A DNA stretch of 64,000 nt from Candidatus Uhrbacteria bacterium. GTDB taxonomy: Bacteria; Patescibacteriota; Patescibacteriia; JACQRZ01. Made by a program: the position numbers and the translations under genes. Shown in pieces: positions 7,902 through 35,002 of this stretch. The stretch covers positions 147,591 through 211,590 of the forward strand of contig JACQSC010000004.1 of assembly GCA_016206155.1 (NCBI GenBank), read 5' to 3'. The notes under the pieces were generated by a model. It was not told the origin of the DNA and searched no databases. It worked only from the letters and a program-made list of their open reading frames with translations. Numbering within the stretch: position 1 is the stretch's first letter; each line of letters begins with the position of its first letter.

Positions 7902-7940
<39 letters not shown>

Positions 7941-16701: not shown

Positions 16702-16706
16702 CCCCT

Positions 16707-17612: not shown

Positions 17613-17614
17613 AG

Positions 17615-17660
17615 TGGTGTCAGGTACAAATTCCTTCCGGAAATTGAGCCAGGCACCATT
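17615..17660 (-). repeat. Copy 4 (degenerate, opposite orientation) of the dispersed palindromic element, between prs and the plsC-HAD gene.
   Basis: GGTGTCAGGTACAAATTCCTTCCGGAAATTGAGCCAGGCACCATTT. Confidence 0.6.
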
Positions 17661-19094: not shown

Positions 19095-20763
19095 CATTAT
19101 CTTTAAATCCTCTGAATGAATATACTGTCTGCTCACCCATGTTCTTCAACACTATTACCTTTTCCTCAACCAACACCACCTCCTTCACGAACGCGTATGC
19201 ATTTGGACCGATCAGAATTTCGTTCACGCCCGCGGTTTGTTCGAGTCGTGCCGCAAAGTTAATTGTCTCGCCCAAGAAATCCCAGATGCGATCGTCGGCT
19301 GGTCCGATTTCACCGGCAATAAAGTCGCCATACTCGATACCGATGCGAATGTCCCAGCCCATCTCCCGTACAAGTATACCAATTTTTGTCGCCGCCTCCA
19401 ATGCGTTATGCGTCAAAACCGGGTAATCCTCGTTTTCCTTGTATCCGCCAAACACCGCCATTATGCCGTCCCCCATGTATTTATAGACCCACCCGTTGCG
19501 CGAACGAATAACGGTGTTTGAAATTTCGCAGTACCGATTCAGTTCCACCATCATCCCGCCAAAATCCTCTGTTGAATGCACGCGCTTACTAAACCCCACC
19601 AAATCTGCAAAAAAGACCACGCCGCTATGGCGCTTTGGCGCGAGCTTGTGAATGGTCATGCGCGATACCAGCTCGGTCGGCAGATGGGAGCTGAGGATTG
19701 CGGTAAGTTCATTCTTCAGGCGTTCAATTTCCTTCTTCTCTTCTGAAATAACTTTGTTGCGCTGACGCACCGCATCCTCAAGCTCTTGCGAGTATCGTTG
19801 AAAATAACTCGCGCGATCCTCGATCTCTTGAAGATAATTATCGGCGTGTTCGGGCCGTACGGCGCGCAATTTTTTTACCAATCGCTTGTGAAACGGCTCA
19901 TGTTGCCACTGCATGCGTAAAATAAAATAGGGCGCGTTATAAATCTGCCCCCGCTCTAGAAGTAAATAATTTTTATACCGATAATCTTTTGTAATCAAAA
20001 TGCCGCGATGCTCATCTGCTTCATGCGGGTCGCGATGCGATCCAACGTAATGAAAGTCACTGCCGACTTTTTCCTTTACGAGTCCGACAACCTTTCCGTG
20101 CGGCTCGCCCTCGACAAAAAGCATATCATCTCTGATCTCGGAAAGAATTGAAAACTGCTCGCGCAAAAGGCGCACAACGTCATACTCAAGAAGAATCTCC
20201 TGCACATCGGCGTGCGGTTGTTTCCAGATTCGCGGAATGCCCGCGATTACGCCTTTTACAATCGGCCCCGAGTGAAAGTCGTGCACGGGATCAATGTGAT
20301 CGCGAAATTTTACTTTAAAAAAAGCGTGCTCGCGGCCCAGATCGACAACATGGATATCTTTTGTCTTGTTAAAATATTGGTTGTACTTTGGCACGCGCCT
20401 AATCAGTACCTTTGGGTCGGCAAAAACCGAGGCGAGCATGCGCTTCATAACCTCAAGCATGCCCAAGCCGCCTTCAGACGTTGAGGATGCACCGATTTCG
20501 TAAAACACAGACGGGTCATTGTCGTGCAAAATGCGCGCGCGTTTGGTAATTTCCCGAAACACCGAGAATGGGATCCAATTGTCAGGATTCGTCAAATAGC
20601 TTTCGGGGTACCCCAAACCGGATAAAAGAGCATCCGGTGAGATGCTCCTTTTCTTGCAATATTCTACGATTAAATTCACGTTCCGCGTCGAAACGCTCAG
20701 TGGTTCATCGTTATCATTGTCATCCTGGCGAAGGCCGGGATCCAGTCCTTTTTGTAATCCCAT
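19072..20763 (-). CDS. Class III adenylate/guanylate cyclase with a ~350-aa N-terminal domain of unknown function.
   Basis: C-terminal catalytic core FADLVGFS...YMGDGIMAVFG...INFAARLE. The N-terminal region carries no recognisable motif. Confidence 0.75.
   Translation of the reverse strand: MGLQKGLDPGLRQDDNDNDEPLSVSTRNVNLIVEYCKKRSISPDALLSGLGYPESYLTNPDNWIPFSVFREITKRARILHDNDPSVFYEIGASSTSEGGLGMLEVMKRMLASVFADPKVLIRRVPKYNQYFNKTKDIHVVDLGREHAFFKVKFRDHIDPVHDFHSGPIVKGVIAGIPRIWKQPHADVQEILLEYDVVRLLREQFSILSEIRDDMLFVEGEPHGKVVGLVKEKVGSDFHYVGSHRDPHEADEHRGILITKDYRYKNYLLLERGQIYNAPYFILRMQWQHEPFHKRLVKKLRAVRPEHADNYLQEIEDRASYFQRYSQELEDAVRQRNKVISEEKKEIERLKNELTAILSSHLPTELVSRMTIHKLAPKRHSGVVFFADLVGFSKRVHSTEDFGGMMVELNRYCEISNTVIRSRNGWVYKYMGDGIMAVFGGYKENEDYPVLTHNALEAATKIGILVREMGWDIRIGIEYGDFIAGEIGPADDRIWDFLGETINFAARLEQTAGVNEILIGPNAYAFVKEVVLVEEKVIVLKNMGEQTVYSFRGFKDNEESDTPA
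20721..20748. repeat. GC hairpin mini-repeat ATCCTGGC-GAAG-GCCGGGAT. A related copy is at 23675-23700.
   Basis: 8-bp stem with a GAAG loop. It lies within the 5' end of the cyclase CDS and encodes GLDPGLRQDD. Confidence 0.5.
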
Positions 20764-20817
20764 AGCGTTCGTATCATACCTCCGTTATGCGCCAAAGTAA
20801 ATACGCGCCCAAGCGGG

Positions 20818-20872
20818 TTGACATTCCGTAAGGGGGGGCAGAATGGGTGTGTTCGCGCGGAAAGGGAGAGCT
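20818..20872 (+). promoter_or_regulatory. Conserved promoter/5'UTR module of small-protein cassette 1: TTGACA...GGGGGGGCAGAATGGG...GGAAAGGGAGAG before the ATG. It is about 90% identical to 22568-22623.
   Basis: Two copies in the window share a ~65-nt block including TTGACA and an SD-like GGAG. Confidence 0.6.
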
Positions 20873-21094
20873 ATGGAAACAATCAAGCGGATCGTCCGGG
20901 ATTTGTCCGGTGTGGTAGAAATTCTTCGGGAAAACGCTAGCCCAATAGAGCGATACAGCATGTATCGTGAAGTGAAGGCCATCGCGGCCGCTCTCGTGCT
21001 CAATGCAGAGTACGAGATGGACGAGGCCGGGCGTGAGGATCCGGCTGGAGTCGCAATACTCAGGAAGGCGCAGTGTTACCACCCTCACTGTTAG
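20873..21094 (+). CDS. Small hypothetical protein of 73 aa (cassette 1).
   Basis: Starts METIKRIVRDLSGVVEILREN..., downstream of the conserved UTR with GGAG 8 nt upstream, and followed by a conserved terminator. The antisense ORF 20774-21139 was rejected. Confidence 0.55.
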   Translation: METIKRIVRDLSGVVEILRENASPIERYSMYREVKAIAAALVLNAEYEMDEAGREDPAGVAILRKAQCYHPHC

Positions 21095-21110
21095 TCGCGA
21101 ACAACAAAGA

Positions 21111-21150
21111 GGGACGGATCGCCATTGTGTATCCGCCATTCAAAACTTTC
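21111..21150 (+). terminator. Conserved 3' module of cassette 1: hairpin GGACGGAT-N11-ATCCGCC followed by TTCAAAACTTTCTG. It is the homologue of 22881-22920.
   Basis: About 55 nt that is near-identical between the two cassettes, starting immediately after the stop codon (CGCGAACAACAAAGA...). Confidence 0.55.
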
Positions 21151-21249
21151 TGTTATCATCCAGGGCGCAGTCGAGAGACCTCCAGTGCTTTCCGTCTCAA
21201 CGATTTTCTCCAGAAAACACTCCTTGTAATACGAGGGCAATAAAATGGT

Positions 21250-21915
21250 TCATTGTTTTTTAAACATTTCCTTTATCCTTTTCTTCTCATCAGCAAACTG
21301 CTTTTGGTTCAGATTGAGTTCAGGGCATTCGACAGAGGTATCGAGAAGTGTAAGAATGCCAGAGATAAGAAACTCCTGCCCGAGCGCGCGTGTATGGTTT
21401 TTAAAAAGTGAGCCATCAAACGATGGATGAAAGAGAATGCTGAAAATATCAAGCTCATCTTTTTTTCCTTTCAGAGATCCTTTTCGGTCCTGATAGGCAT
21501 GACACTTCAGCAGGATCATTATTTCAATCTGCGGCACCGTGAATCCATCGACCGACTGCGTATGATCGCGAATAAAAGAAACGGGAATACCAAGATTGGA
21601 CCAGCCAGGAACATAGATGTCGATATCAAACCCCTCGTGCGGAATTTCATATTTTTTGAGTCGTTCATTTTTCTGAACGCCATAGCGGGTTTTTAAATCC
21701 GCGAGCGTATCAAATTCCACAATAATATCGATATCCTTTGATTTTAATGATCGAGTGTGAACGTACACCGCCCATCCGCCGATGAGAATGAAAAAAATCT
21801 GCTGTCTCAGCTCCTGGAGTACGATGAAACTTTTATCGGTGATGTTCTGATGCCAAAATGCCATAGGATTAGGAAAGTAACTCTTCAAGCTTTGGGAGGA
21901 TATCCTTTGCATACC
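21250..21915 (-). CDS. AbiEii-like nucleotidyltransferase toxin (DUF1814-like), tentative.
   Basis: Pol-beta-type NTase motif GGWAVYVHTRSLKSKDIDIIV. About 220-250 aa. It lies directly downstream of, and overlapping, an HTH regulator gene, which is the canonical abiEi-abiEii order. The start is uncertain. Confidence 0.55.
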   Translation of the reverse strand, partial: GMQRISSQSLKSYFPNPMAFWHQNITDKSFIVLQELRQQIFFILIGGWAVYVHTRSLKSKDIDIIVEFDTLADLKTRYGVQKNERLKKYEIPHEGFDIDIYVPGWSNLGIPVSFIRDHTQSVDGFTVPQIEIMILLKCHAYQDRKGSLKGKKDELDIFSILFHPSFDGSLFKNHTRALGQEFLISGILTLLDTSVECPELNLNQKQFADEKKRIKEMFKKQ

Positions 21916-22468
21916 ACTCAGGCGCGTTCCATATATCAGCAAACACTTGCTCAAGAAGCGGTTGGGGATAGCGAGAAAACAGCGGGTCCTTTTCAATAAC
22001 AAAAAAATTGGGGGCTAATCCACTATTCTTTTTCGAAACCCATACGCGTACACGATCACGAATCTCTGCACAGGTGTTTCGGTCGGCATACACATAGACA
22101 TGATCGTATTCCGTCGGCATCGCCGAGAGAAGAAATTGTGTCGCGCTATAGAGCCCAAAAGCGATCGCCGGTGGCATCGCCGCCTCAATGTCAAAGGAAC
22201 CTTTCTCAAGGCGCAGTGAAAACATCATGTCTTTTATCAACGAGCGCTCGGTCGCAAAAAGATAGAGAAGCTTTCTATAATCCTGTAGCACAAAAAAGCG
22301 CCCTGTCACACGGATGATTGACGTATCGCGAGCACTTTTAAGGGCATTAAAAACCGTGCTTGTTGAAATACCCAACGTGCTGGCAAGCTCTTTTTGGGTA
22401 AATCGAATCTGCCCATGTACCCGTTTTTGATAGAGAATCTCTCTATAAACAGCACATTTTTTATTCAT
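21869..22468 (-). CDS. AbiEi-like antitoxin/transcriptional regulator with an N-terminal winged HTH, tentative.
   Basis: HTH segment FTQKELASTLGISTSTVFNALK. 199 aa. It overlaps the downstream NTase gene. Confidence 0.5.
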   Translation of the reverse strand: MNKKCAVYREILYQKRVHGQIRFTQKELASTLGISTSTVFNALKSARDTSIIRVTGRFFVLQDYRKLLYLFATERSLIKDMMFSLRLEKGSFDIEAAMPPAIAFGLYSATQFLLSAMPTEYDHVYVYADRNTCAEIRDRVRVWVSKKNSGLAPNFFVIEKDPLFSRYPQPLLEQVFADIWNAPEWYAKDILPKLEELLS

Positions 22469-22530
22469 TTCGATTTTTTATCACAATTTATATACCCATT
22501 TCGATAATGCTCGAAATGAAATAATTTGTC
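22469..22530. promoter_or_regulatory. Candidate AbiEi operator: three copies of CATTTCGA(T/G), two direct and one inverted, in the abiEi promoter region.
   Basis: TCATTTCGAT at 22471, CCATTTCGAT at 22503, and CTCGAAATGA at 22517 (reverse complement). AbiEi proteins are known to autoregulate through inverted repeats. Confidence 0.35.
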
Positions 22531-22567
22531 AATACGACCAGTGGATTTGCCCAAACCTCTAGCAGTG

Positions 22568-22623
22568 TTGACATTCCGCGAGGGGGGGGCAGAATGGGGG
22601 TGTTCGCGTGGAAAGGAGAGGTT
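22568..22623 (+). promoter_or_regulatory. Conserved promoter/5'UTR module of small-protein cassette 2.
   Basis: GTTGACATTCCGCGAGGGGGGGGCAGAATGGGGGTGTTCGCGTGGAAAGGAGAGGTT then ATG. Confidence 0.6.
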
Positions 22624-22860
22624 ATGAACCGACATAAACAAGGATTGGGGGGACTTCGAATTCTTTATGAGGAGCTGGGACGGCTCCTCAGCCCGGATGA
22701 GATTCCGGTCAATAAAGAGGAATTTTTCATGAAAATAGCCGACTCAGCGGACGCCCTCCGGGTGTCTGCGCGTGGTCTGGCAAACGCCGGTCTCACCGAA
22801 GGTCAAATCATCACACGGATCGCAAGAAGTGCGTGGATGGAGGTTTTCGGGAAGAAATAA
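22624..22860 (+). CDS. Small hypothetical protein of 78 aa (cassette 2). It is a divergent paralogue of the cassette-1 protein.
   Basis: Starts MNRHKQGLGGLRILYEELGRLLSPDEIPVNKEEFFMKIADSADAL.... It has weak positional similarity to cassette 1 (L.G...IL.E...SP.E), and identical flanks. Confidence 0.55.
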   Translation: MNRHKQGLGGLRILYEELGRLLSPDEIPVNKEEFFMKIADSADALRVSARGLANAGLTEGQIITRIARSAWMEVFGKK

Positions 22861-22880
22861 GATGCGCGAACAACAAAGAA

Positions 22881-22920
22881 GGGCGGATCGCCATCGTGCA
22901 TCCGCCCTTCAACACTTTTT
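22881..22920 (+). terminator. Conserved terminator of cassette 2: GGGCGGAT-cgccatcgtgc-ATCCGCCC followed by TTCAACACTTTTT.
   Basis: 8-bp GC stem plus a T-run. Confidence 0.6.
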
Positions 22921-23015
22921 ACTCAATTTTTCCTATTCGTATATTACCGGCAAAGTCGGTTCTCCATATCTTGATTCGCTGACAAAAAATGCGCCGAGAA
23001 CGAACAAACACCATC

Positions 23016-23546
23016 TTATCGCTCTCCGTGGAGCAGTCGCTCAAACGCCTCCATATTCCCCAAAGCATCGTGAACGGGGTTGTGATCATGGGGTGTTCTG
23101 CGCAGTTTTTTCCATGACGACGCATCCGTGATATCGCCAACAAGGCCGGCGTAAAAATCTCCTATACGCCGCGCGGAATGGCCGAAAGGATTTTTGCCAA
23201 GCGTCCGCCAGAAACCATCATTGATCCATTGCCAGTCAAAGGCGGGGTTGTCACTGATAAAAATCGGACGTCCTTCCTTTTTTCCAAATACTGTTTTTTC
23301 ATCGCTTATTCTTTCTATAACAACAGGAATCGCCTGATTATGTTCAGCGGGTCTTGTTCGTGCGAGCACGCCGTGAAACTTCTCTTGGATCAAAACGTTT
23401 CGCGCAAGCTGGCTGAGGAACTTCAAGGAGATTTTCCAGGAACAGCCCATGTATATTTGTGCGGATTGCGTTTGAAAGAGAAAAGAAACACGGCTGTTTT
23501 CAAATTTTTTCACTGTAGCCGCTAAACGACTTCTTCCAAATAACAC
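23016..23546 (-). pseudogene. DEDDh (DnaQ-like) 3'-5' exonuclease fragment. Exo II and Exo III motifs are present, but the Exo I DxE motif is absent.
   Basis: DNPAFDWQWIND (Exo II-like) and HNPVHDALGN (Exo III H-x4-D). There is no N-terminal DxE block, so it appears N-terminally truncated. Confidence 0.45.
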
Positions 23547-25300
23547 TCTTTGCAGTAGACGCGCTCATCCAAAGCAGGGTCCCATGTCGTCTGGAATGGA
23601 CGCTTACACGGGGTCTGGCTCAATTTCGCTTGCGAATTTGTGCCTGACCCCATTTCCTGCCCGCCCCCGCTCTCATTCCGGCGAAGGCCGGAATCCAGTC
23701 CAGTTTTCAACTAATGCTGGCTGTGCGTCGCTTCACCACAATCACACGTCCCTGACCACAGCTGTTTTGGATTTCTCTTTGCCATTCGTGCCTTGTGGCG
23801 TTCAAGAAAACTTTTGTCTGGGACATGGATATTCAGGCGACGATAAAATGCCAGCTCTTGTTTGATATATTTGAACTTCTGGCCGGTGTCTTTATCTGCA
23901 AGAACTCTGTCACACCACGAGTCGTCGACGTCTTTGATGCTATCGGGAATTTCGGTTGCCTCGCCTCGCTTGATATCGGCAGAATCGTCCCAGCGAAATC
24001 CTTTTTCCAGTGCCTTCTCTTTTGAGAGGGGCATAAAAATCCCAGCATTGGATGTATTGTACGCAAAGGGACTGTACTCGGGTGGGAAGAACTCGCCCCA
24101 TTCGCCGGTTTCCTTCATATGCTCTATGAGTTTAGTGCGGAGCTTCTCATATTCATCTTTGGTGTATTGCTTGTTGAGGATGCAGTACTGGCCCTTTTTC
24201 AAGTTACTGCAGCCAAAACAATTTTGAATCGAGCGACAGAAATAGCAATAATCTACCTCAGCGCACCCCTCCATGACCCCCCAGCTCCACCGTATATTAT
24301 ACGAACTAAACCCGCAGACAGCCGAATAATAAAACCGGGAACTACCCTCCCCGCACTCAAACGTTTCATAACAATCCTTTATCGGTAAAAACGCTGCTTC
24401 ACAATACTTTGAATCCTCCACGCGAAACCCGTCATAACATTCAATCGCATTTTTTGAATTGATGAGATAATCACCAGTGCAATCAACATTACTCATCCCG
24501 TGCATATATTGCTTGGGAAATTTCTTTTTGTGCTCATCAAACTTTTCCGCCCACTCACGCACAACTGATCGGCGGGAAAGGTCGGCTCCCTGCAAACGTT
24601 TTTCGTATTCCTCCTTTGAGATCCTCTCGTTAAACCAATAGTACTCGGCATTTTTCAAATTCGCGCACCCAAAACAGTTTATACAGTTGGAGAGATTATA
24701 TCCGAAAATACATTCATTTGAGTCCTGAACATTTTGGCAATAGAAACATTTGTAGCATTTCAAACAGTCGATACATTCATAACACAGCTCTGATTCGCGC
24801 ACCTTCAAGCAGTCGACCGCGTCTTTACTGTTTTGAAGCGTATATGAATAATACGAATCTTCATTCACGTCGCTGTCAAAAACCAAATAACAGTTCTTTA
24901 CCGCGCTGCAATAGTTAATGTAATCGCTGTTTACGATATTCCCTTCAATAACAAAACGTGATGCGTGAGGGACGCTCCTATCGAGGTCTGCGAACTGCTC
25001 AAAAAATGGGCGAGAAAAATCAATATCGCGTGCGAAGGAACGCGCGTCCCATGAGTCGCCCCACCAGGCGGCATTGTTGTATACCGGGAATGGTGTACCC
25101 TCCGGGTACATTGCAAGTATCTGTTTTCCCGTGAGGTCGCATTTTCTTGGATAGAGCAATAATTCATTTTCCCACATGAGCTGAACCCGCCGCCGGCACG
25201 GATGGCACCGTCGTGGCGGAGGAACATCAAACGAACGAAAAAACTTGTGGTCTTTCTCATCAAATGAGAATTCTTTTTTACATTGAATGCAGATATTCAT
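23522..25300 (-). CDS. Cysteine-rich paralogue A of the unknown-function family. Its C-terminal zinc-ribbon region is disrupted by an in-frame TAG (23711-23713) plus two repeat insertions, so it is possibly a pseudogene.
   Basis: Collinear with paralogue B from MNICIQCKKEF to ...LWSGTCDCGEATHSQH, then a stop. The same frame continues LKTGLDSGLRRNESGGGQEMGSGTNSQAKLSQTPCKRPFQTTWDPALDERVYCKECYLEEVV, matching B's C-terminus. Confidence 0.6.
23609..23655 (-). repeat. Copy 5 of the dispersed palindromic element, inserted in-frame in the C-terminal region of paralogue A.
   Basis: GGGGTCTGGCTCAATTTCGCTTGCGAATTTGTGCCTGACCCCATTT. Confidence 0.8.
23675..23700. repeat. GC hairpin mini-repeat ATTCCGGC-GAAG-GCCGGAAT, adjacent to copy 5.
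   Basis: Perfect 8-bp stem, homologous to 20721-20748. Confidence 0.5.
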
Positions 25301-25370
25301 AGTACCGATACTATACATCTGCTTATGGCTGATGTCTATGTAGTCCTTCGCGTACTCTTTGAGCAACACC

Positions 25371-25937
25371 TCAAGTAAACTCGCTTAACAGCCGCTGGGT
25401 TAGCACCCACGGGAGACCGATAATACTCTCGCGTTCGCCCTCGATATGATCAATGAATGGCATGAAAAGAGAATCGACGATACTGAATCCGCCGGCGAGC
25501 TCATACGTCCGCGGGTAAGCAACAATCTGTGCAACAGCTTCGTGTTGTAACGCGCGAAACCATACCCTCCCACGATCAACGCCATCTGCCCGTTCCCCGG
25601 TCTCGGTATTAGTAACAACAACCGCCGTTACGGTTTCAGCGGGATGAGCTGTATACATTTGGAGCATAGCCCGTTCCTCATCTTCATTTTCCGGCTTCTC
25701 TAAAATTTCTCCGTTGCATAAGACGACTTGGTCTGAGGTAATAAGAAGCGCGGGCTTCTTGATTCGCGGAATCAACGCATCTGCTTTTGCGTGAGCAAGA
25801 AGGAGTACGAGTTTTTCCGGGTCCGGATCACGAATCGCCCTCTCGTCGATATCAGAACTCATGACATCAAAGCTAAAGCCCCTCTCTTCAAGGATTATTT
25901 TTCTGCCTTTTGACGCCGAACCCAAAATTATCTTCAT
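25371..25937 (-). CDS. maf: Maf-like nucleoside triphosphate pyrophosphatase (septum formation protein Maf family).
   Basis: MKIILGSASKGRKIILEERGFSFDVMSSDIDE N-terminus. Its ATG overlaps paralogue B's stop (ATGA). Confidence 0.75.
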   Translation of the reverse strand: MKIILGSASKGRKIILEERGFSFDVMSSDIDERAIRDPDPEKLVLLLAHAKADALIPRIKKPALLITSDQVVLCNGEILEKPENEDEERAMLQMYTAHPAETVTAVVVTNTETGERADGVDRGRVWFRALQHEAVAQIVAYPRTYELAGGFSIVDSLFMPFIDHIEGERESIIGLPWVLTQRLLSEFT

Positions 25938-27667
25938 ACAATCTCCTTTTGATAACACGCCTCGCAAAAAACTTTCTCGGAGCGGTCGGGGGCGTACGTT
26001 GTCTCAAACATGGTTGGACATTGACTGCCCGCCTTCGTCCGCCGTTGCTGAAGCTCTGGCGCGACTTCGGCGCGGGAACCATGGTCGTGCCCTGCGCGGT
26101 CGCACATACACTGGCGGTGCCACAGATGGCGGGGATTGCGCATGCGCATGCGCGCCATATGGCGACAATCAAAGCAACGGCGGGGGAGTGGCACGTTCAT
26201 TTTTTTATAAAATGATAACTCCGCTTTTACAATCTTAAAGTTTTTGCCGCAGTCACTACAGGCTAACACCTCGCGCATAATGGATTCGTCAATGTGCGCA
26301 ATGTCATCGGGAACGGAGCTCCACTCCTTTGTTGGTTTCCCGAACTTTCCTGCTGTCTCATCACACCAATTGAATCCTTGCCCCAATGCTTCCTCTTTTG
26401 AAAGAGGGAAGTCATCATTAGCGATTGTTTCATTGTACCCAAACGCGGAGAGATTGGCAGGAAAAAACTGACCATACTCACCACGACGCGACATATCTTC
26501 AATAATTCTCGCGCGCAATTTTTCGTACTCTTCTTGTGAATACTGCGTATTTAAAATACAAAACCTCGCCTTACGCAATCCCTGCGAACCAAAACAGTTG
26601 TCGCTGTTCATAACGTATGAACAATATTGAAGGTTTGAGCTCGCCCACGAGTATTGGCAAAACTGTTCGTTCATTGCCGGTTCAATATTGCTCAATACGT
26701 CACAGAATAACTCGCTACCCAGTGCAATATAATTACTGTCATAGCTGTCTTTTGTCGGACCGGGTGATATAACAATGTATTTACAATCCTCGAGATTTCT
26801 CGCATCAAAGCATTCATTTGCATTTACGCAGTTCAATAGGTAATTGCCGGTTGAATTCTCGCAACGGGTCTGTTGAGAATATTTATGTATCGCCACCGTA
26901 TGAATCATCGATATAAAATCTTGTTTTAACCCTTCTATCTTTGTGTAACTGCCAAAATAAATAGCGCTCATCCTTTTCTCATACTCGCCCCTATTAAGCT
27001 GCTCATTGTTGAACACATAGTTCTTGTTTTTGAGGTTTGCGGACATAAAGCAATTGGTGCATCCACTGCAGTCATAGAGGAAAGATGAATCCATACAATT
27101 GCTCGATTGCTGGCACCAGGAGCTGTTATACATTTTCTCGCAATCAACGAGTTCGTATCCCAGCTCGCTTCCGCGCGCGAACATTGAATCTACAACATTT
27201 TGACTCTCTGCAATCTGGAGGCCGTAGTAACAATCTTCATTTCCACCAGAGGAAATAAGGAGGTATCCATTTCTGTTTTCCCAACAATGCGCTGTGAAGT
27301 CAGAATTTTCTCCGCTTTTGCTCATCATCGCTATTTGCGGAACCGAACGAAAAAGATCTTTCAGCTGATCAAAAAATGGAGCCGAAGGATCGTACTTGCG
27401 AGCATACAAAAACGGATCCCAGTTGTCGGACCACCAGCATGGCTGGCAATAAACCGGGCCCGCGTAGGATGGAGAATAAAAATTTACCGTTATTTTTTTG
27501 CACAAATCGCATGCACGGCTGTATAGCGCGCGTTCATTGCGAAAAGCAAAACGCCTCTGCCGCCGACAATCAGGGCAGAACGTCGGCTCGGGGACCTTGA
27601 TACGACGATAGAATGCTCGATCCTGTTCGATAATTTCAAATTGCTTAATACACTGCCCACAAACCAT
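25934..27667 (-). CDS. Cysteine-rich paralogue B (578 aa), the only apparently intact member of the unknown-function family. It has an N-terminal CxxC...CxxC zinc-ribbon-like segment, a central region with repeated N-C-x2-C-x2-C/N-L-K-like motifs, and a C-terminal CxC...HDHG...CxxC segment.
   Basis: MVCGQCIKQFEI...CPDCRR at the N-terminus, ...NCFGSQGLRK... in the middle, and ...HRQCMCDRAGHDHGS...FETTYAPDRSEKVFCEACYQKEIV at the C-terminus. The ATG at 27665-27667 lies 5 nt after the relE stop. Confidence 0.7.
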   Translation of the reverse strand: MVCGQCIKQFEIIEQDRAFYRRIKVPEPTFCPDCRRQRRFAFRNERALYSRACDLCKKITVNFYSPSYAGPVYCQPCWWSDNWDPFLYARKYDPSAPFFDQLKDLFRSVPQIAMMSKSGENSDFTAHCWENRNGYLLISSGGNEDCYYGLQIAESQNVVDSMFARGSELGYELVDCEKMYNSSWCQQSSNCMDSSFLYDCSGCTNCFMSANLKNKNYVFNNEQLNRGEYEKRMSAIYFGSYTKIEGLKQDFISMIHTVAIHKYSQQTRCENSTGNYLLNCVNANECFDARNLEDCKYIVISPGPTKDSYDSNYIALGSELFCDVLSNIEPAMNEQFCQYSWASSNLQYCSYVMNSDNCFGSQGLRKARFCILNTQYSQEEYEKLRARIIEDMSRRGEYGQFFPANLSAFGYNETIANDDFPLSKEEALGQGFNWCDETAGKFGKPTKEWSSVPDDIAHIDESIMREVLACSDCGKNFKIVKAELSFYKKMNVPLPRRCFDCRHMARMRMRNPRHLWHRQCMCDRAGHDHGSRAEVAPELQQRRTKAGSQCPTMFETTYAPDRSEKVFCEACYQKEIV

Positions 27668-27671
27668 AGTA

Positions 27672-27929
27672 TTATCGGTATAGATTACTGTGCGTATCAA
27701 GATCAACAAAATAAGCGACATTCTCGCCATCCAGTCGGTATACTGCGCGGTAGTCTCCTGTTATGTTAATGCTACGATAGCCAATCCACCTTCCAACAAG
27801 AGCGTGATTGTTGAGAATTGGATAGTTGATATCTGCGGCAAATAAAATAATCCGTTCTCTTGCCTGGTCTTTAAGGAACGGATATTTTTTCAGCTTCTTT
27901 TCAAATTTTTTGTGAAGAACTACTCTCAT
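27672..27929 (-). CDS. Type II toxin, YafQ/RelE family.
   Basis: HALVGRWIGYRSINITGDYRAVYRLDGENVAYFVDLDTHSNLYR. Confidence 0.7.
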   Translation of the reverse strand: MRVVLHKKFEKKLKKYPFLKDQARERIILFAADINYPILNNHALVGRWIGYRSINITGDYRAVYRLDGENVAYFVDLDTHSNLYR

Positions 27930-28201
27930 AATGCGCGAAAATAGCGAGAGATTTCTTCTTTCGTCGAGAGGATGGGCGAAAGATTCTTTTTTCTTTTATA
28001 GTCGCGTTCAGCGACAGCAATGGTTTTCTCAAGTTGTGGGGTCATCCGCGGAGGTGCGGAAACGCGAAATTCTCGCGTGCGCAACAGCTCTCTAAAATAC
28101 GCGTTCACGATGGTGCTTACGGGCATGCCAATTTCTCGCGCAAATTCCTGCACACCCTCCTTTACCTCTTTGTCGGTTTTGATGCTCATCATCGTCTTCA
28201 T
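27926..28201 (-). CDS. DinJ/RelB-like antitoxin.
   Basis: M(KTM)MSIKTDKEVKEGVQEFAREIGMPVSTIVNAYFRELL parallels the DinJ-like protein at 3036. It overlaps the toxin gene by 4 nt. The track ORF is over-extended upstream. Confidence 0.65.
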   Translation of the reverse strand: MKTMMSIKTDKEVKEGVQEFAREIGMPVSTIVNAYFRELLRTREFRVSAPPRMTPQLEKTIAVAERDYKRKKNLSPILSTKEEISRYFRAL

Positions 28202-28241
28202 ATATCTATAGTATATACACCGGCTTATTTGTGTCAAACAA

Positions 28242-28508
28242 TTAGATGATTTCCTTTTGATAACACGCCTCGCAAAAAACCTTTTCCGGTCGATCTGGGG
28301 AGTAGGTGGTTTCGAATTCCCTTGAACAGCGCCCCATATGTTCGTGACCCGCGCTGCTTGCCCGCCTTTGTGCGGGGTCGCACATACACTGGCGGCGCCA
28401 AAGCTGATGGAGATTGCGGAGCGAGCGGCGAGAATCATATCTGCTCTGCGCGCAAGGTTTCATAGATAGTGCGAGCTCATCGGTAGATATTCTTTCGGTT
28501 ACCAACAT
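28242..28508 (-). pseudogene. C-terminal remnant (about 60-85 aa) of a fourth cysteine-rich paralogue.
   Basis: ...LWRRQCMCDPAQRRASSAGHEHMGRCSREFETTYSPDRPEKVFCEACYQKEII aligns with the C-termini of B and C. It lies immediately downstream of a RelE/ParE toxin, as the intact copies do. Confidence 0.6.
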
Positions 28509-28737
28509 CGATGAGAATAATCTCTATTGGCGAGTCGAAACGAAAAATCACGCGCCAATCGCGCGTGATTCGAAAAGAGTAAAGCCCCGCAAGCTCGCCG
28601 GTCAGTGGTTTAGTATGAAGAAGTGAATGATAGGGGTTTGCTTCAAGAACTTCAAGAAGTCGAGCGAGTTTCTTTTGTTGGGGTTTGGGAAGCGCTCGCG
28701 CATTTTTAAGAAAATGATCGCCGTAGCGCAGGATCAT
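28477..28737 (-). CDS. Type II toxin, RelE/ParE family.
   Basis: KPLTGELAGLYSFRITRDWRVIFRFDSPIEIILIDVGNRKNIYR. Confidence 0.75.
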   Translation of the reverse strand: MILRYGDHFLKNARALPKPQQKKLARLLEVLEANPYHSLLHTKPLTGELAGLYSFRITRDWRVIFRFDSPIEIILIDVGNRKNIYR

Positions 28738-28991
28738 GTCTTTAGGTGTTCAAGAAAAGTTTTTGCATTGCTGAAGCGATAGGTCGGCTGATCGTTCATG
28801 GCGACGAAAACGCGATTTACAAATTCTGGACGATAGATGCCTTCGCCATCTTTTCCGGCAACACCAATAAGAAATGACCGAAGAAGTGTCATCTCTTTCT
28901 TGAGTGTCTTGATGTCTGCCGTGGCTGTGATCATAAGAGTATCTTTCCTCATGTACAGCGTAGCAAAATTTATGGCGCTGTCAAGCGCCAT
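28734..28991 (-). CDS. Cognate antitoxin of unassigned family.
   Basis: 85 aa, with a 4-nt ATGA overlap onto the downstream toxin. Confidence 0.5.
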   Translation of the reverse strand: MALDSAINFATLYMRKDTLMITATADIKTLKKEMTLLRSFLIGVAGKDGEGIYRPEFVNRVFVAMNDQPTYRFSNAKTFLEHLKT

Positions 28992-28994
28992 ATG

Positions 28995-30453
28995 TCACAC
29001 GATCTCCTTCTGATAGCATCCCTCGCAATAAATCTTCTCCGGGCGGTCGGGGGCATAGGTGGTTTCAAATTCTATCGGACAGCGACTGCCGTGATCATGG
29101 CCTTGGCGATCACACATGCACTGCCGGTGATAAAATTCAAAAGCGTTGCGATGGTTCATTCGCTGTCTATGCCGTTCTTCCGGGTGCAAGCGGGGGAGTG
29201 GAAGATTAAAGCGTTTATAGAACGCCAACTCTTGTTTGATAATTTTGTAATTCTTCCCCGTCTTTTCACATGCCAATATTTCTTTGCAGATCGACTCATC
29301 TACCGCTTGAATGTCGTTTGGTATATCGCCCCATGAGATTGTCTCCTTTCCTGTTGTAACGGGGATATCGTCTTGCCAGTTGTATCCTTGTGCAAGCGCC
29401 GCTTCTTTTGAGAGGGGATAAAAATCCATTGCGACTGTTTCGTTATATCCAAACGGAGAGATGCGAGGATCAAACGACAGCCCCCACTCGCCCGTCTTCT
29501 TCATGTGCTCAATAATCTTTTCGCGCAGGACTGCGTATTCGTCTTTTGAGTGTTGCGTATTGAAAATACAGTATTGTTTTACTTTTACTCCGCTGCACCC
29601 AAACAGATTGGTTGACGACAAACAGAATTCGCTGTAGTCAACGTCAGAGGATTTGCTCACGACAACGATACACCACCGAAGGCGCTGACAGTCGGCGCCA
29701 CTGGCAAGCGACTCGTATACAAGCTCGGCCCGTTCGCCAACATAGCAGGACCGCAGTGAATCGCGCAAACCGGGAAAACCCGTATGAACATCGCGGCAGT
29801 TTTCTCCTTCGTACATTTGATAACAATCAACGCAGTTCTTTGACTTCGTAATATATTCGCCAACACATCCTTCAGAATTGTAATTGTAATTGCACCGACG
29901 GGGAAAGCCCCGCACATACTGCTCGAAAAAAGCCTTCTGTTCATCAAGCGGCCTTTGTCTGAACTCTTTGGCTTTTTGTTCGTATTCTTCTTTGCTGTAC
30001 TGCGTGTTCATGAAACAATGGCTCTTGTGTTTCATGTTGCAGCAGAGGAAGCAGTCAGAACAATCCGAGCAGTCCTTGAGAAACTGCGAGGAATGACAGT
30101 TCTGTGAGTCGACCACATACTGGCACGCATAACACTGCTGGATGCCGACACATTCGTAGCACAGCTCGCTTCCAAGCGCGTAATCAGTGTCGACGCAGCT
30201 GCGGCTTTCTTGCGCCAAATTACAGTAGAGGCAATCCTCCATCATGTTTCCCGCAAATGACAGGTAGGAATTTTTTGTGTGGTAACTATAATTGATGTAG
30301 TCGGCGTTTTCGTTATTCGCAACCATCCGCGCCGCGCGCGGCACACTTTTTAGTAGAACATACTGCGGGCTCCGGTACGTTCAGCCGTTCCAATAATCCC
30401 CGATTCGCATCGGTGATCTCAAATTGATTCTTACACTGCGCACAGGGATTCAT
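28995..30453 (-). pseudogene. Cysteine-rich paralogue C. Its N-terminal zinc-ribbon segment (30313-30453) is frame-shifted relative to the body (28995-30344), and about 85 codons are deleted between them.
   Basis: The upstream frame reads MNPCAQCKNQFEITDANRGLLERLNVPEPAVCS...stop. The body frame reads ...SPQYVLLKSVPRAARMVANNENADY..., matching B's ...FFDQLKDLFRSVPQIAMMSKSGENSDF. The C-terminus ...HRQCMCDRQGHDHGSRCPIEFETTYAPDRPEKIYCEGCYQKEIV is intact. Confidence 0.6.
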
Positions 30454-30829
30454 AGAGTTCCAGTCCGGGGATATCTCGAAAATGCTTTACATTAAGGGTG
30501 TAAAGTTGTGCGCAATGCATTATTGCGGTTGCCGCTATTGCTGCGTCTGCAAATTCAATGGGTTGTTTTGCGTCCCGCGAAATTTCTCCGGCACGCCGCG
30601 CCACATCCGTTGTATAGGGAAGAGTGGTAAATGGCGCCATCACCAGGTAGAGTGCGTTCTGCTTTTCGCGATCCTTTGAGCTCTTCCCTTCAAACAATTC
30701 TTGGATGGAAATGGTGGAAATTGCGAGTTCCGCAAGGGGGACAACGGCGGTAATGCGCAGAAGCTGCGTATCGGCTCCGCTTCGTTGGCGGAGGTGACCA
30801 ATAATAATATTGGTATCAAGAATTACCAT
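30431..30829 (-). CDS. vapC: VapC PIN-domain toxin.
   Basis: MVILDTNIIIGHL... PIN signature. Its last codons overlap, in another frame, the ATG of the paralogue-C N-terminal segment. Confidence 0.75.
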   Translation of the reverse strand: MVILDTNIIIGHLRQRSGADTQLLRITAVVPLAELAISTISIQELFEGKSSKDREKQNALYLVMAPFTTLPYTTDVARRAGEISRDAKQPIEFADAAIAATAIMHCAQLYTLNVKHFRDIPGLELYESLCAV

Positions 30830-31119
30830 GATGATGCCCTTCGTTTCCTGGCCGCCGAGAGTTCGCGCGCCCGATGCGCCTTCTCATGTTTCTCATCGAT
30901 CTCTCCCCAGCTTCCTTTTGTCTTCAGCAGCATCTTTTGATATGCGCTCGCTGCGGGACCATTGGAAAAAACACTATGAATCGGGTGAAGATAAAGGCCG
31001 TCTTCATAGGGGATAATATTGACCGATGACCGATCGGTTATCCCAAACCTCTCCCTCAATTCCTTAGGGATAACTACCTGTCCTTTAGTATTGGGTTGGG
31101 TGATATATCCAGGTTGCAT
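30823..31119 (-). CDS. vapB: VapB-type antitoxin with an AbrB/MazE/SpoVT domain.
   Basis: GQVVIPKELRERFGI swapped-hairpin motif. 7-nt overlap with vapC. Confidence 0.7.
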   Translation of the reverse strand: MQPGYITQPNTKGQVVIPKELRERFGITDRSSVNIIPYEDGLYLHPIHSVFSNGPAASAYQKMLLKTKGSWGEIDEKHEKAHRARELSAARKRRASSW

Positions 31120-31378
31120 AGAAGTAATACTTTATATACTTTATTACCTTTACAATACCATGATACCTCAACACCGTCAACAAGCCTTGCTCCGTTGCTA
31201 TTCTATCGCTCTATGTATCCACACTGCTCTAATGCAGGATCAACATCGGGATAAAAATTTCTTTCCCATGAGTGTTTCGCGAATTCCTGCATCAACCCCC
31301 ATGGATTTCCCGCGATCTTCCACGTTCCCATGCCAACCTCCGATACGTTCAGTCCTGTTTTTCCAAGAGCTCTATAGT

Positions 31379-31765
31379 TCATTTTTTTGTAGGATGCGCG
31401 GACGGAGACCCCTCATGTCTTTTTACATTACGTTCATGCAGAGTATAGAAGGCGATACCGTAGCAAATCGTTCGTAGAAAATTTCCGGTTTTGCCCGTCT
31501 CGCGAAGCGCTGTGTCTACTTCCTCAAATAAATCAATGAGTTCTTCTCTGGCGTTTTGATACTCCGAGGAGTAAATGTTTTCACTGTTGGTGTACAATAT
31601 ATTTTGTATTTTTTCCAAACGAGCAAATCGTTCGGGGCTGTACCAGGGATCAACACTCCCTTGCTTTTCTAGTCCCTTCTTCTGCTCGTCCATTATTTCA
31701 TGAACAACCCTTGCTACGCCCGAACAGTGGCTATATTTTCTTATTCTGTCCTCGATGTTCTCCAT
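31379..31765 (-). CDS. Hypothetical protein of 128 aa.
   Basis: An ORF with plausible composition. No motif was recognised. Confidence 0.4.
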   Translation of the reverse strand: MENIEDRIRKYSHCSGVARVVHEIMDEQKKGLEKQGSVDPWYSPERFARLEKIQNILYTNSENIYSSEYQNAREELIDLFEEVDTALRETGKTGNFLRTICYGIAFYTLHERNVKRHEGSPSAHPTKK

Positions 31766-31778
31766 ATGTAATCAAATT

Positions 31779-31852
31779 TGGTGGACCTAGGCGGAATCGA
31801 ACCGCCGTCTGTGCAATGCGAATGCACTGTGCTACCACTATACCATAGGCCC
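31779..31852 (-). tRNA. tRNA-Ala (anticodon CGC), with CCA encoded.
   Basis: Reverse complement GGGCCTATGGTATAGTGGTAGCACAGTGCATTCGCATTGCACAGACGGCGGTTCGATTCCGCCTAGGTCCACCA, with the G3:U70 Ala identity pair. Confidence 0.8.
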
Positions 31853-31859
31853 ATTACCC

Positions 31860-31933
31860 TGGTGCCCCCGGCGTGAATCGAACACACATTACCTCGTTAG
31901 GAGTGAGGAGTTCTATCCGTTGAACTACGGGGG
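31860..31933 (-). tRNA. tRNA-Arg (anticodon CCT), with CCA encoded.
   Basis: Reverse complement GCCCCCGTAGTTCAACGGATAGAACTCCTCACTCCTAACGAGGTAATGTGTGTTCGATTCACGCCGGGGGCACCA. Anticodon loop CTCCTAA. Confidence 0.75.
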
Positions 31934-32643
31934 CCGGCTGTCATATTAAACAGGTATTGCTGGCCAATTGCAAGCACTGTTTGAAAAAACCAATAGAGCC
32001 CCAAACCACTCGGAAACTGGTAGGTCATCACGCCGGTGATAATTGGCATAAAAAACATCATCTGCTTGCTCATCACCGCAGCCATGTCCTCATCCTTTGA
32101 GCCCGGCACTTTTGGAGGACGCTTTGCGATCATAAGCTTTGACTGCCAAAACTGAATGCCCCCAACAATAACTGCGAGAATAATATTTTGGCTCTGGGAA
32201 AGCGAGAAAAGGCCAAGAAACGTGTGGTTCAGTGTTCCGGGATTTTGAATAAAGGGGTAGAGAAGATTTGCGTATCCTTCATCCTTTAGTCCGTTGGTAA
32301 AAACATAAAACAGCGCGATGAGGAACGGAAGCTGAACAAGAAGCGGGAGACACGACGAAAGGGGATTGATTTTCTCCTCTTTGAAAAACTTCATCTGCGC
32401 CTGCGCGAGCCCTTGCTTGTCATCCTTGTATTGCGCCTTTAGCGCCTCAATTTTAGGCTGGATGTCTTGGAGTTGTTTTTGGCTTTCTAGCTGTTTCCAC
32501 GAAAGAGGGTAAAGCGCGAGTTTTACAAGAATGGTCAAAATAATAATGGAGAGCCCAAGATCGTGGTTTGGCAAAATATTGTAGGTCCAAATCAACAGGT
32601 TGAGAAGTGGCTGATAAAATACGGCTGTGAATAGTTCTTGCAT
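31897..32643 (-). CDS. yidC: Membrane protein insertase YidC (short form). The ORF's last ~12 codons overlap tRNA-Arg.
   Basis: 248 aa with multiple TM helices and the conserved YidC/Oxa1 C-terminal region (FPSGLGLYWFFQT). Confidence 0.75.
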   Translation of the reverse strand: MQELFTAVFYQPLLNLLIWTYNILPNHDLGLSIIILTILVKLALYPLSWKQLESQKQLQDIQPKIEALKAQYKDDKQGLAQAQMKFFKEEKINPLSSCLPLLVQLPFLIALFYVFTNGLKDEGYANLLYPFIQNPGTLNHTFLGLFSLSQSQNIILAVIVGGIQFWQSKLMIAKRPPKVPGSKDEDMAAVMSKQMMFFMPIITGVMTYQFPSGLGLYWFFQTVLAIGQQYLFNMTAGPRSSTDRTPHS

Positions 32644-33406: not shown

Positions 33407-33616
33407 ATCGAATAAAGCTCATGAATCTTTCACTAGCATACCGTATGTAATAAAAAATGTAAACGAGGGGCTTGCTTTTTTTCTTATTCACATTACACTG
33501 GTTGTTATTCACATGATATCCACACTCTATACACTCGCTCGTTCTTTTATTGTTTTTGGTCCCATGCTACAATCCACGCGTTCTCAATTTACTCTTTCTT
33601 CAATCCTTTTGTGCAT
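33407..33616. promoter_or_regulatory. rpmH-dnaA intergenic region with DnaA-box-like 9-mers: TTATTCACA x2 at 33484 and 33505, ATATCCACA at 33516.
   Basis: One-mismatch matches to TTATCCACA, located at the classical origin position. Confidence 0.5.
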
Positions 33617-35002
33617 ATGAATACCGTCCAGCTCTGGCAGGCTACGCTCGGTGAGCTTGAGATCCTCTTGAGTAAACCGAATTTCAGCACATGGTTCCGC
33701 GAAACATTTGTTGTTTCGCATGAGAATAATAAGGTTGTCATTGGTGTCCCAAACGCGTTTACAAAAACCTATCTCGAAAAAAAGTATCATGTTCTCATCG
33801 TTCGCGCGCTTCGCAATGTGGCGCCCGAGACAATCAAAGATGTGCTCTACAAAGTTGAACTCAAAGATCTCAGAAAACAGGCTGACCCACCCTTCGCTTC
33901 CGAACCCGACGTGTTCAGCCAAGCTCTCGGCCAGTCATTTGCCAAGCAAAGCGCTCCTAGGCCCGAACACGTTACTCCGGCAGGTCTGAATCCGCGCTAT
34001 ACCTTTCATAATTTCATTGTCGGGAAATACTGCGAGCTTGCACATGCGGCTTGCCAGGCGGTCTGTGACACGCCCGGTGAAACATACAACCCGCTATTTA
34101 TCTATGGGGGGGTGGGCCTTGGAAAAACACACCTCCTCCAGGCGGTTGGTCACGAGATCCTTACTCGCAGTCCTGAGAAGCGGGTGTTGTTTGTTACGTG
34201 TGAAAAGTTTTCAAACGACTACATTCAAGCCGTTCGCTCGGGGCGCGCAAAGGAGCTTAAAGACACCTACCGCAGCGTTGACGTTCTCATCATCGACGAT
34301 GTTCAGTTCCTTTCAAGTAAAGAGGGGACCCAGGAAGAGTTCTTTCACACCTTTAATGCGCTCCATCAAACAAATCGTCAGCTTATTATATCTTCAGACC
34401 GCCCGCCAAAAGCAATCCCAGCAATCGAGGGGCGTCTTCTCTCCCGCCTCGAGTGGGGCATGATCGCCGACATTACCAGCCCCGACCTTGAAACGCGCAT
34501 CGCTATTTTAGAAACAAAATGCAAGGAGAAGGGTGTTCGGGTTTCCGGCGATATTATCAACTATATCGCAACAATGGTGCACAACAACATCAGGGAGCTT
34601 GAGGGGGCGCTCAACCGCATTTTGGCGTACAGCCAGCTCAACAACGAGGAGCTTGGGTTTGAAAAAATAAAACAAATCCTCTCGTCCCTTACGATGAGCT
34701 ATGCTAAAAAATCAATCACACCAAAACAGATTGTTTCACTTGTCGCTGAATTTTATAATCTCGCGATTGGCGATCTTATCGGTGAGTCGCGAAAGCGAGA
34801 ACTTGCCATTCCGCGTCAAATTAGCATGTATCTCATGCGCGAGGAAATAAAGTGTTCCTTCCCGACAATCGGACAAGAAATAGGGGGGCGCGACCACACA
34901 ACCGCCATACACGCATACAATAAAATTCAGCGGGATGTTGACGAAAGTCCAAAAGTAAAACAGGATATTGATCTTATTCGCCAACGTATGTACAACATCT
35001 AA
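33617..35002 (+). CDS. dnaA: Chromosomal replication initiator DnaA.
   Basis: Walker A GGVGLGKTHLLQAVG, an AAA+ core, and the C-terminal DNA-binding helix region. Confidence 0.9.
   Translation: MNTVQLWQATLGELEILLSKPNFSTWFRETFVVSHENNKVVIGVPNAFTKTYLEKKYHVLIVRALRNVAPETIKDVLYKVELKDLRKQADPPFASEPDVFSQALGQSFAKQSAPRPEHVTPAGLNPRYTFHNFIVGKYCELAHAACQAVCDTPGETYNPLFIYGGVGLGKTHLLQAVGHEILTRSPEKRVLFVTCEKFSNDYIQAVRSGRAKELKDTYRSVDVLIIDDVQFLSSKEGTQEEFFHTFNALHQTNRQLIISSDRPPKAIPAIEGRLLSRLEWGMIADITSPDLETRIAILETKCKEKGVRVSGDIINYIATMVHNNIRELEGALNRILAYSQLNNEELGFEKIKQILSSLTMSYAKKSITPKQIVSLVAEFYNLAIGDLIGESRKRELAIPRQISMYLMREEIKCSFPTIGQEIGGRDHTTAIHAYNKIQRDVDESPKVKQDIDLIRQRMYNI

Follow-up and report, generated by a model that had tools for sequence, protein, structure and literature searches.

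The window analysed here is a 64,000-nucleotide stretch of Candidatus Uhrbacteria DNA in which an ~11-kb interval (20770-31935), lying between a cyclase gene and two tRNA genes, had been described by a first-pass annotation as an accessory and defence island. We consider it probable that this interval is instead an inherited, decaying array of paralogs of a single cysteine-rich (Cys-rich) protein family, punctuated by toxin-antitoxin (TA) pairs, specific to one clade of Uhrbacteria and positioned beside the replication origin. Its interest lies less in any 'island' than in the family, which is very large, nameless and confined in our searches to groups of the Candidate Phyla Radiation (CPR), and in the TA-punctuated arrays that the family forms. 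The dnaA gene occupies 33611-35002, placing the interval 2-13 kb away, and the cumulative GC-skew minimum falls at ~35 kb, so that the interval adjoins the origin; with the exception of two small open reading frame (ORF) cassettes, its main genes are directed away from it. That the interval is accessory and variable was a sound observation, as no other part of the window is so unstable or so rich in TA genes, and its content differs among relatives.

A hidden Markov model (HMM) of the family, run over all 64 kb, recovers six Cys-rich pieces, every one of them within the interval, comprising three large copies (CysA, CysB and CysC) and three fragments (Table 1); the family had been noticed from the sequence, and the HMM confirms it. 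For comparison we used relatives found through context look-ups for close CysB homologues, which represent four related lineages (L026, L027-29, L109 and L110-112) with YidC 64-72% and DnaA 80-83% identical to those of the window. CysB is the sole intact Cys-rich gene in the interval, and its orthologues in these relatives are 64-73% identical. CysA is interrupted by an in-frame TAG (23711-23713) that severs its final 62 codons and borders a pair of inserted palindromic repeats (23604-23706) within the C-terminal zinc module's linker, a break confirmed by read-through alignment with the intact orthologues of L026 (83% amino acid identity) and L027. The L027 orthologue has ~30 additional residues at the same linker, not found in L026, which resemble translated palindromic repeats of these loci. 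CysC has lost ~85 codons of its N-terminal zinc module and carries a frameshift near 30345, as seen by three-frame translation against the intact L109 orthologue, to which it is 90% identical in amino acids and 89% in nucleotides. The ~65-codon remnant between the first two TA pairs corresponds to the 561-aa copy located after the second TA pair in L110, its tail aligning with the 561-aa copies of both L109 and L110. Degraded elements were thus correctly reported for this interval, and include the in-frame stop of CysA, the deletion and frameshift of CysC, this paralog remnant, an aldo-keto reductase remnant and an exonuclease fragment.

Three canonical type II TA pairs, not the four proposed initially, are interleaved with the Cys-rich copies: VapBC and two of RelE/ParE type. 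The toxins of the latter (~85 aa) pass the ParE_toxin cutoff of 23 bits with 25.6 and 24.1 bits, with YafQ, HigB and YoeB scores slightly under the Pfam cutoffs, and each is overlapped by an upstream antitoxin ORF (91 and 66 aa), one of which has a weak DUF6364/RelB match. TA pair 1 matches YafQ_toxin (1e-6), ParE_toxin (1.8e-5) and DUF6364 (2.7e-4), and weakly RelB_DinJ; it is preceded by a promoter-like site at 28237-28210 (11 of 12 matches) and has orthologues in L109 and L110 at 66-82% identity. TA pair 2 matches HigB-like (1.4e-5), YoeB (1.8e-5) and ParE (5.4e-5) models, and its L110 orthologues (78% and 65% identical) likewise stand ahead of a Cys-rich paralog. In TA pair 3 the PIN (1.1e-14) and MazE_antitoxin (3.7e-6) matches both exceed their gathering scores and the genes overlap by 7 nt; VapC is 92% and VapB 95% identical in amino acids to L109, where the pair (94% nucleotide identity) is also ahead of the CysC orthologue.

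The case for inheritance is made by synteny. In all four lineages one shared place holds yidC, tRNA-Arg, tRNA-Ala, Cys-rich paralogs with TA pairs, and maf, in the order dnaN-dnaA, rpmH-rnpA-yidD-yidC, a few variable genes, Cys-rich paralogs, maf, a divergent TrmB regulator and a further paralog; L026 and L027 also show a CysA-type paralog and next to it an orthologous cyclase, 71-75% identical in amino acids and unchanged in position. In tRNA scans of L026, L027 and L029 the tRNA-Arg and tRNA-Ala genes come straight after yidC, and the same succession of yidC and tRNA pair is seen in L006, L008, L014 and L016. In L109 a 98-aa VapB and a 132-aa PIN protein stand ahead of the CysC orthologue, and in L110 a DUF6364/YafQ pair and a 66-aa/ParE pair each precede a paralog. 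The maf gene, whose ATG overlaps the stop codon of CysB, had been thought to be caught in the array, but it lies within the array in all four relatives too. No Maf homologue was found in 79 metagenome loci containing the Cys-rich family, and the link to the maf family is therefore specific to this Uhrbacteria clade. The gene located immediately after tRNA-Ala in L026, L109 and L110 has a 67-74% identical counterpart of 145 aa in the window at 53270-53713 (+); this counterpart lies ~21 kb away across the origin, and the tRNA-proximal junction has therefore been rearranged in this genome.

The proposed comparison with related genomes gives a divided answer: four diverged lineages keep the backbone while their content differs, and the block is absent from the more distant L006. 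Among the species representatives of the genome collection L006 is the closest (YidC 57%), and its order is yidC, tRNAs, 889-aa protein, SMC, rpsP, KH protein and trmD. The window shares this outer order but has ~16.8 kb between tRNA-Ala and its 785-aa and SMC genes (14957-31778), including prs, an acyltransferase-HAD fusion, the cyclase, and ORFs of 281 and 196 aa without a Pfam match; the 15-16 kb segment has the window's lowest GC (0.41). The block is therefore clade-specific and not universal core. On short Logan contigs from the same population or samples the arrangement is unchanged, and no strain-level polymorphism was seen among them.

Within this backbone the DNA is a mosaic. Background identity to all relatives, as measured over yidC and dnaA, is 68-75%, but rises with respect to L109 to 89-94% over 29000-31185 (CysC and VapBC; L109 4447-6850) and to 88% over maf alone (25390-25938; L109 12042-12590), VapB and VapC contrasting in their protein identity with YidC (64%). 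The best explanation of such sharply delimited blocks is that recombination between related strains recently replaced single units, and their pattern of identities indicates that genes were exchanged recently between Uhrbacteria lineages. The order of units also differs, since TA pair 1 is before CysB in the window and after the CysB orthologue in L109. Relatives hold, at various points, Fic, GIY-YIG, NUDIX and AbiEii genes, an ABC transporter and a full aldo-keto reductase, and the TrmB gene has been lost from the window. The full reductase gene is in the arrays of L110-L112; the L110 copy, called at 349 or 373 aa, aligns as two 29-aa pieces when searched against the window with tblastn. In L112 a 563-aa Cys-rich paralog (13207-14898) that is intact in L110 and L111 (13982-15673) of the same population is split into halves of 273 and 274 aa. 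Split copies also occur in L039, L045, L048 and L108, and pseudogenisation of array members is common.

Beyond Uhrbacteria the family is widespread, with thousands of diverged members and typically several tandem copies per CPR genome, which may amount to about 1% of a 1-Mb genome. A word-indexed search returned more than 1,300 matches and every source name was a CPR group (Uhrbacteria, Falkowbacteria, Gracilibacteria, Kerfeldbacteria, Nomurabacteria, Sungbacteria and 'Patescibacteria group'); among representatives clustered at 50% identity, an exhaustive profile search matched 5,931 at E<=1e-3 and 2,425 at E<=1e-30. The fullest annotation among these members is 'zinc-ribbon domain containing protein', their sole Pfam match is zf_Tbcl (PF13451), and neither the family nor PF13451 was mentioned in the literature searched. 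Members are ~560 aa long, with CxxC pairs at both ends, a Cys-rich middle and conserved motifs including CWWSDxWD and YNET, cysteine making up 6-7% of residues. The N-terminal 80 and the C-terminal 105 residues each form a double zinc-ribbon module, and hhalign identifies the two modules as homologous (probability 99.6%, E 2e-24). No sequence relative was found in the PDB. In the predicted fold a beta-solenoid lies between these two modules, and in the AlphaFold2 model of CysB (pLDDT 83.5, pTM 0.84) the centre has as its only structural neighbours other beta-solenoid proteins, namely left-handed beta-helix acyltransferases, gamma-carbonic anhydrases, insect antifreeze proteins and the curli protein CsgA. 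Arginine-rich zinc ribbons and the cysteine content lead us to guess at zinc-dependent nucleic-acid binding or zinc buffering.

In the 79 metagenome loci the family as a rule forms tandem arrays of two to six copies on one strand. With duplicate loci excluded, we counted 89 junctions between successive Cys-rich genes, with gaps of at most 120 nt in 58, 401-1000 nt in 20 and greater length in 11. The 37 gap ORFs match RelE/ParE/YafQ/HigB toxins, HicA, HicB, CopG, ribbon-helix-helix and DUF6364 antitoxins and HTH_3, and also Fic (2), NYN (2), a DUF6036/AbiEii nucleotidyltransferase, TrmB (4), Maf (2) and a few others. On our reading of the matches ~16 of the 37 are TA-type, half of them from lineages outside the window's clade; TA pairs are found between copies in several unrelated CPR lineages. 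Two control sets were drawn from the same loci, one of 138 ORFs at distances above 2.5 kb and the other of 150 ORFs outside the arrays but within 900 nt of them. For each set the 25 commonest families are for the most part housekeeping ones, with no classical toxin or antitoxin family among them. A TrmB-family regulator occurs inside or beside arrays (7 matches; L026, L027, L039, L104, L109 and L110). The idea that arrays generally lie near the origin was rejected, as dnaA and yidC were not found in the 79 loci.

Taken together, we hypothesize that yidC, tRNA-Arg and tRNA-Ala on one side and the cyclase on the other are old anchors around an array of similar 1.7-kb genes, and that the content between them changes in three ways. 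Deletion by recombination between similar paralogs would remove the intervening DNA; what look like scars of such deletions are the 28242-28508 remnant and the points where CysB directly joins maf and maf directly joins CysA. Copies are also lost to pseudogenisation, in one case through a palindromic-repeat insertion that introduces a stop codon, and single units are replaced through recombination with related strains. The TA pairs could act as addiction modules in this setting, such that a deletion taking a TA pair with it would kill or arrest the cell, and would in this way slow the shrinking of a recombination-prone array. Experiments have shown such a role for TA cassettes in chromosomal integron arrays, where they kill cells upon too frequent cassette excision (PMC13108822). 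By analogy with these, TA pairs may stabilise the Cys-rich array against deletion, a role that we regard as a possibility short of even chances.

Several observations weigh against this picture. In most arrays of other CPR lineages the copies directly adjoin one another and no TA pair intervenes, and half of the TA-type gap ORFs belong to the window's own clade (L109 and L110). The Pfam summaries cover the 25 commonest families of each set, so single TA matches in the controls may be hidden and the controls are rough. The stabilising role is drawn from analogy, and decay of the array went on despite its TA pairs. The lack of the block in L006 implies gain or loss at some depth, and an ancient insertion beside the tRNAs may have occurred; the relatives compared are also diverged, with DNA identity of ~70%.

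Some of the same observations are what would be expected under the main rival, neutral accumulation, in which nothing links the paralogs and the TA pairs functionally and a permissive, recombination-prone stretch simply lets selfish TA modules, repeats and stray genes persist. The mixed gap content (Fic, NYN, DUF559, ORF6N, aldo-keto reductase, NUDIX, TrmB), the variable order exemplified by TA pair 1, the continuing decay and the many arrays lacking TA pairs between copies all fit it. However, TA-type genes are in the gaps and not among the listed families of flanking or distant ORFs, TA pairs 1 and 3 each have their own promoter-like site, and the identity of the TA genes to their orthologues (65-95%) mostly equals or exceeds that of YidC (64-72%), which argues for purifying selection or repeated replacement. 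We hold neutral accumulation to be a serious though rather unlikely account, and prefer that of an inherited, TA-punctuated array.

A further proposal, which we consider unlikely but worth stating for its consequences, is that Cys-rich arrays and TA genes make up a new CPR-specific system central to the episymbiotic lifestyle, serving in the sensing of invaders or host or in conflict, with the TA pairs as partners or guardians. If so, the window would represent one array caught amid decay and exchange of units.

A narrower version, in which Cys-rich proteins would be the sensors and interleaved toxins the effectors of a new CPR-specific conflict or defence system, is in our view very improbable. 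It draws on the large, fast-diversifying and tandemly expanded nature of the family, on the repeated occurrence of TA, Fic, NYN and nucleotidyltransferase-type genes nearby, and on the apparent recent exchange of VapBC-CysC as a single block. Against it, the family has no enzymatic or NTPase domain, most copies are without a toxin gene, ordinary housekeeping genes surround the arrays, and no PADLOC model matches. CutA1 (three matches; L051, L054 and others) and ZIP zinc transporters (three, in several loci) are found near arrays and hint weakly at metal handling in place of defence. The defence functions expected of the interval at the outset find no support in the PADLOC scan, of ten proteins, which yielded no defence system, its matches being a generic cyclase domain and the exonuclease fragment.

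There remains the original view of a genomic or defence island, integrated site-specifically at the tRNA-Ala 3' end and carrying TA, Abi-like and other cargo that protects against phage. The two tRNAs at the right end are real, both on the minus strand and confirmed as tRNA-Ala(CGC) and tRNA-Arg(CCT) by ARAGORN and Rfam, and the block abuts the 3' end of the former. The abundance of TA genes, the recent exchange of parts of the block, its absence from L006 (where the tRNAs precede the 889-aa protein and SMC) and a slightly low GC (0.467 against 0.492 elsewhere) are also in keeping with an island. A direct repeat of the tRNA 3' end, suggested as the mark of the far border, was sought for either tRNA across 8-31.77 kb on both strands by blastn-short and mismatch scans, and none was found at 16 nt with <=2, 20 nt with <=3 or 24 nt with <=4 mismatches; the best exact matches (9-10 nt) are at chance level. 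No integrase, recombinase or transposase family of Pfam was matched among the 20 ORFs scanned in or beside the interval, which include every large non-overlapping one. Composition is normal, given that same-size windows span GC 0.462-0.515 and that the tetranucleotide distance of 0.10-0.12 falls in the window's range of 0.09-0.14. The exchanged blocks are internal units (VapBC-CysC and maf) and not the whole interval, and the left border is unremarkable, the DNA that is extra relative to L006 taking in the cyclase, prs and acyltransferase as well. Conserved gene order without an att-like repeat, which the first-pass annotation had named as grounds for abandoning the island, is largely what is seen, distant L006 being the exception. 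With neither att repeat nor integrase, and with a backbone kept in place in four diverged lineages, a discrete island integrated at the tRNA genes is not supported and is largely refuted at the level of the clade, making it the least probable of the accounts considered.

Table 1. Coordinates of the genes, pseudogenes, cassettes and repeats discussed (window positions).
Feature	Position	Strand	Evidence or remark
Class III adenylate/guanylate cyclase (563 aa)	19072-20763	-	Left anchor; Pfam Guanylate_cyc 3.7e-12
Small-ORF cassette 1	20817-21149	+	Promoter-like element and 5' leader 20817-20872; 73-aa orphan ORF 20873-21094
Nucleotidyltransferase-motif protein (~204 aa)	21250-21864 (longest ORF to 22002)	-	Motif GG...DIDxxVE
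Winged helix-turn-helix (HTH) protein (199 aa)	21869-22468	-	Pfam HTH_Crp_2 7.9e-7; upstream of and overlapping the nucleotidyltransferase-like gene
Small-ORF cassette 2	22567-22918	+	78-aa orphan ORF 22624-22860; flanks as cassette 1
Exonuclease fragment	23016-23546	-	PADLOC exonuclease effector profile 8.6e-11
CysA	23522-25369 (body 23711-25369; tail 23522-23710)	-	Family HMM 1.8e-201 (body), 7e-8 (tail)
maf (nucleotide pyrophosphatase family)	25371-25937	-	Pfam Maf (PF02545) 1.1e-42, profile positions 1-187 of 187
CysB (577 aa as annotated, HY623_02905)	25934-27667	-	Family HMM 8.6e-262, profile positions 3-559
TA pair 1	RelE/ParE/YafQ-type toxin 27672-27929; DUF6364/RelB-like antitoxin 27926-28201	-	
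Cys-rich 3' remnant (~65 codons)	28242-28508	-	Family HMM 3.6e-25, profile positions 495-558 only
TA pair 2	RelE/HigB/YoeB-type toxin 28477-28737; small antitoxin 28734-28934	-	
CysC pseudogene	28995-30453 (28995-30344 and N-terminal piece 30313-30453)	-	Family HMM positions 107-559 and 2-35
TA pair 3	VapC (PIN) 30431-30829; VapB (MazE/AbrB-type) 30823-31119	-	
Aldo-keto reductase remnant (59 aa)	31203-31382	-	NCBIfam N-terminal matches
Orphan ORF (128 aa)	31379-31765	-	Adjoins tRNA-Ala
tRNA-Ala(CGC)	31779-31852	-	ARAGORN and Rfam; right anchor
tRNA-Arg(CCT)	31860-31934	-	ARAGORN and Rfam; right anchor, directly after yidC
~55-nt palindromic repeat copies	~1055-1145, 3629-3685, 16640-16696, 17610-17663, 23604-23661, 40941-40995, 41821-41892		

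The left part of the interval holds genes of other kinds. An AbiEi/AbiEii-like module was proposed for the winged-HTH and nucleotidyltransferase-motif genes, for which a promoter-like site is present at 22532-22504; the two-gene layout of HTH followed by nucleotidyltransferase holds, but no AbiEi/AbiEii model, PF08843 included, is matched in Pfam (E<=0.01), PADLOC (E<=0.01) or NCBIfam (E<=0.1). The ~204-aa protein has a weak NCBIfam match to the Lnu(E) nucleotidyltransferase (E 0.034), and a 36-aa core pairs (E 6e-5) with L086:1695-2198, which alone among the gap ORFs is nucleotidyltransferase-like and gave one match each to DUF6036 and AbiEii. AbiE identity was rejected, the models being silent and pairwise comparison with the real AbiEii of L027 giving E 0.15. 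The truncated exonuclease is confirmed as a partial match, residues 88-171 aligning with positions 88-176 of the 184 in the PADLOC profile, so that the C-terminal half alone is recognisable; it has no Pfam match. At the other end of the interval, the 128-aa orphan ORF beside tRNA-Ala matches nothing in Pfam, NCBIfam or PADLOC and has no counterpart in the relatives, and is identical on short contigs from the same population.

The two small-protein cassettes reported at the outset are confirmed by their common flanks. The 5' flank, TTGACA..GGGGGGGCAGAATGG.TGTGTTCGC..GAAAGGAG..ATG, is promoter-like and includes a leader, and the 3' element, CGCGAACAACAAAGA.GG, a hairpin and TTCAACACTTTT, occupies 21096-21149 in cassette 1 as a hairpin and T-run and recurs in cassette 2; a 5' GTTCGCG and a 3' CGCGAAC are complementary. 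The enclosed ORFs look unrelated to one another, the 78-aa ORF finding only itself in the databases (HY623_02885), and the cassettes flank the HTH/nucleotidyltransferase pair. Between the CysA-type paralog and the cyclase, similar 5' and 3' elements surround a 95-aa ORF in L027 (~18200-18560, minus strand), and a similar 3' element follows a 92-aa ORF in L026 (~20335-20700, minus strand). A structured RNA was rejected as an identity for the cassettes, as the folding z-scores (-1.06 and -4.66) conflict and the common part is the terminator hairpin alone.

The cyclase, whose neighbours are the acyltransferase-HAD fusion and a small-ORF cassette, has a best PADLOC match to PycC (3.9e-20) that is restricted to the generic cyclase domain. 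Given that no effector gene lies alongside and that the position is conserved in L026 and L027, the cyclase is probably not part of a Pycsar system. Its first ~20 called codons overlap a palindromic repeat, and the true start is therefore probably further in. Repeat insertions had been thought to concentrate in the interval, but of about 8 copies of the ~55-nt palindromic (hairpin) repeat (GGAAATGGGGTCTGGCTCAATTTCC..GGAATTTGTGCCTGACCCCATTTCC) in the window the interval contains one. A second palindromic repeat occurs at 23673-23706 and 20720-20753, and it is the first of these, together with the ~55-nt copy at 23604-23661, whose insertion in the CysA linker introduces the stop codon. Across the whole window Rfam finds tRNAs, an intron-bearing 16S rRNA and a group II intron domain only, the interval being otherwise empty. 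The 16S rRNA gene (5505-7947) is 2.4 kb long owing to a group I intron (6229-7186), a common feature of 16S rRNA among CPR bacteria, and the group II intron D1-D4 domain (5166-5248) lies just downstream of it.

The locus can be compared with several known systems. Like tRNA-associated islands it has tRNA neighbours, many TA-type genes, pseudogenes and content that varies among relatives, but unlike them it has no att repeat, integrase, clear compositional signal or recognised defence system, and its backbone is conserved in place. The pair at 21250-22468 shares with AbiE an overlapping HTH gene followed by a gene with a nucleotidyltransferase core, yet differs in matching no AbiEi/AbiEii model and in resembling the L086 gap ORF through its 36-aa core alone. 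The TA pairs have the form of type II modules, being small two-gene operons with overlapping genes, antitoxin first, and matches to PIN, MazE, YafQ, ParE, HigB and YoeB; several of these matches, however, are under gathering scores, alternation with paralogs of one family is unusual, and activity is predicted from sequence.

The closest parallel is perhaps with sedentary chromosomal integrons such as the Vibrio cholerae superintegron (PMC13108822). No IntI integrase match or attC-like repeat is present here, the sole inter-unit repeats being the homologous 3' ends of paralogs; the units are paralogs of one 560-aa family and not unrelated promoterless cassettes; and the array is ~10 kb and not 100 kb long, with a stabilisation that is putative. 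Both are nonetheless long arrays of recombination-prone units on one strand, among which type II TA pairs with promoters are scattered, and both are inherited at a fixed position in the chromosome even as their content changes. The locus offers a concrete case for how tiny genomes keep or lose repeated genes; were the analogy to hold, the principle that TA modules guard unstable arrays would apply not to integrons alone but also to simple arrays of paralogs in genomes of reduced size.

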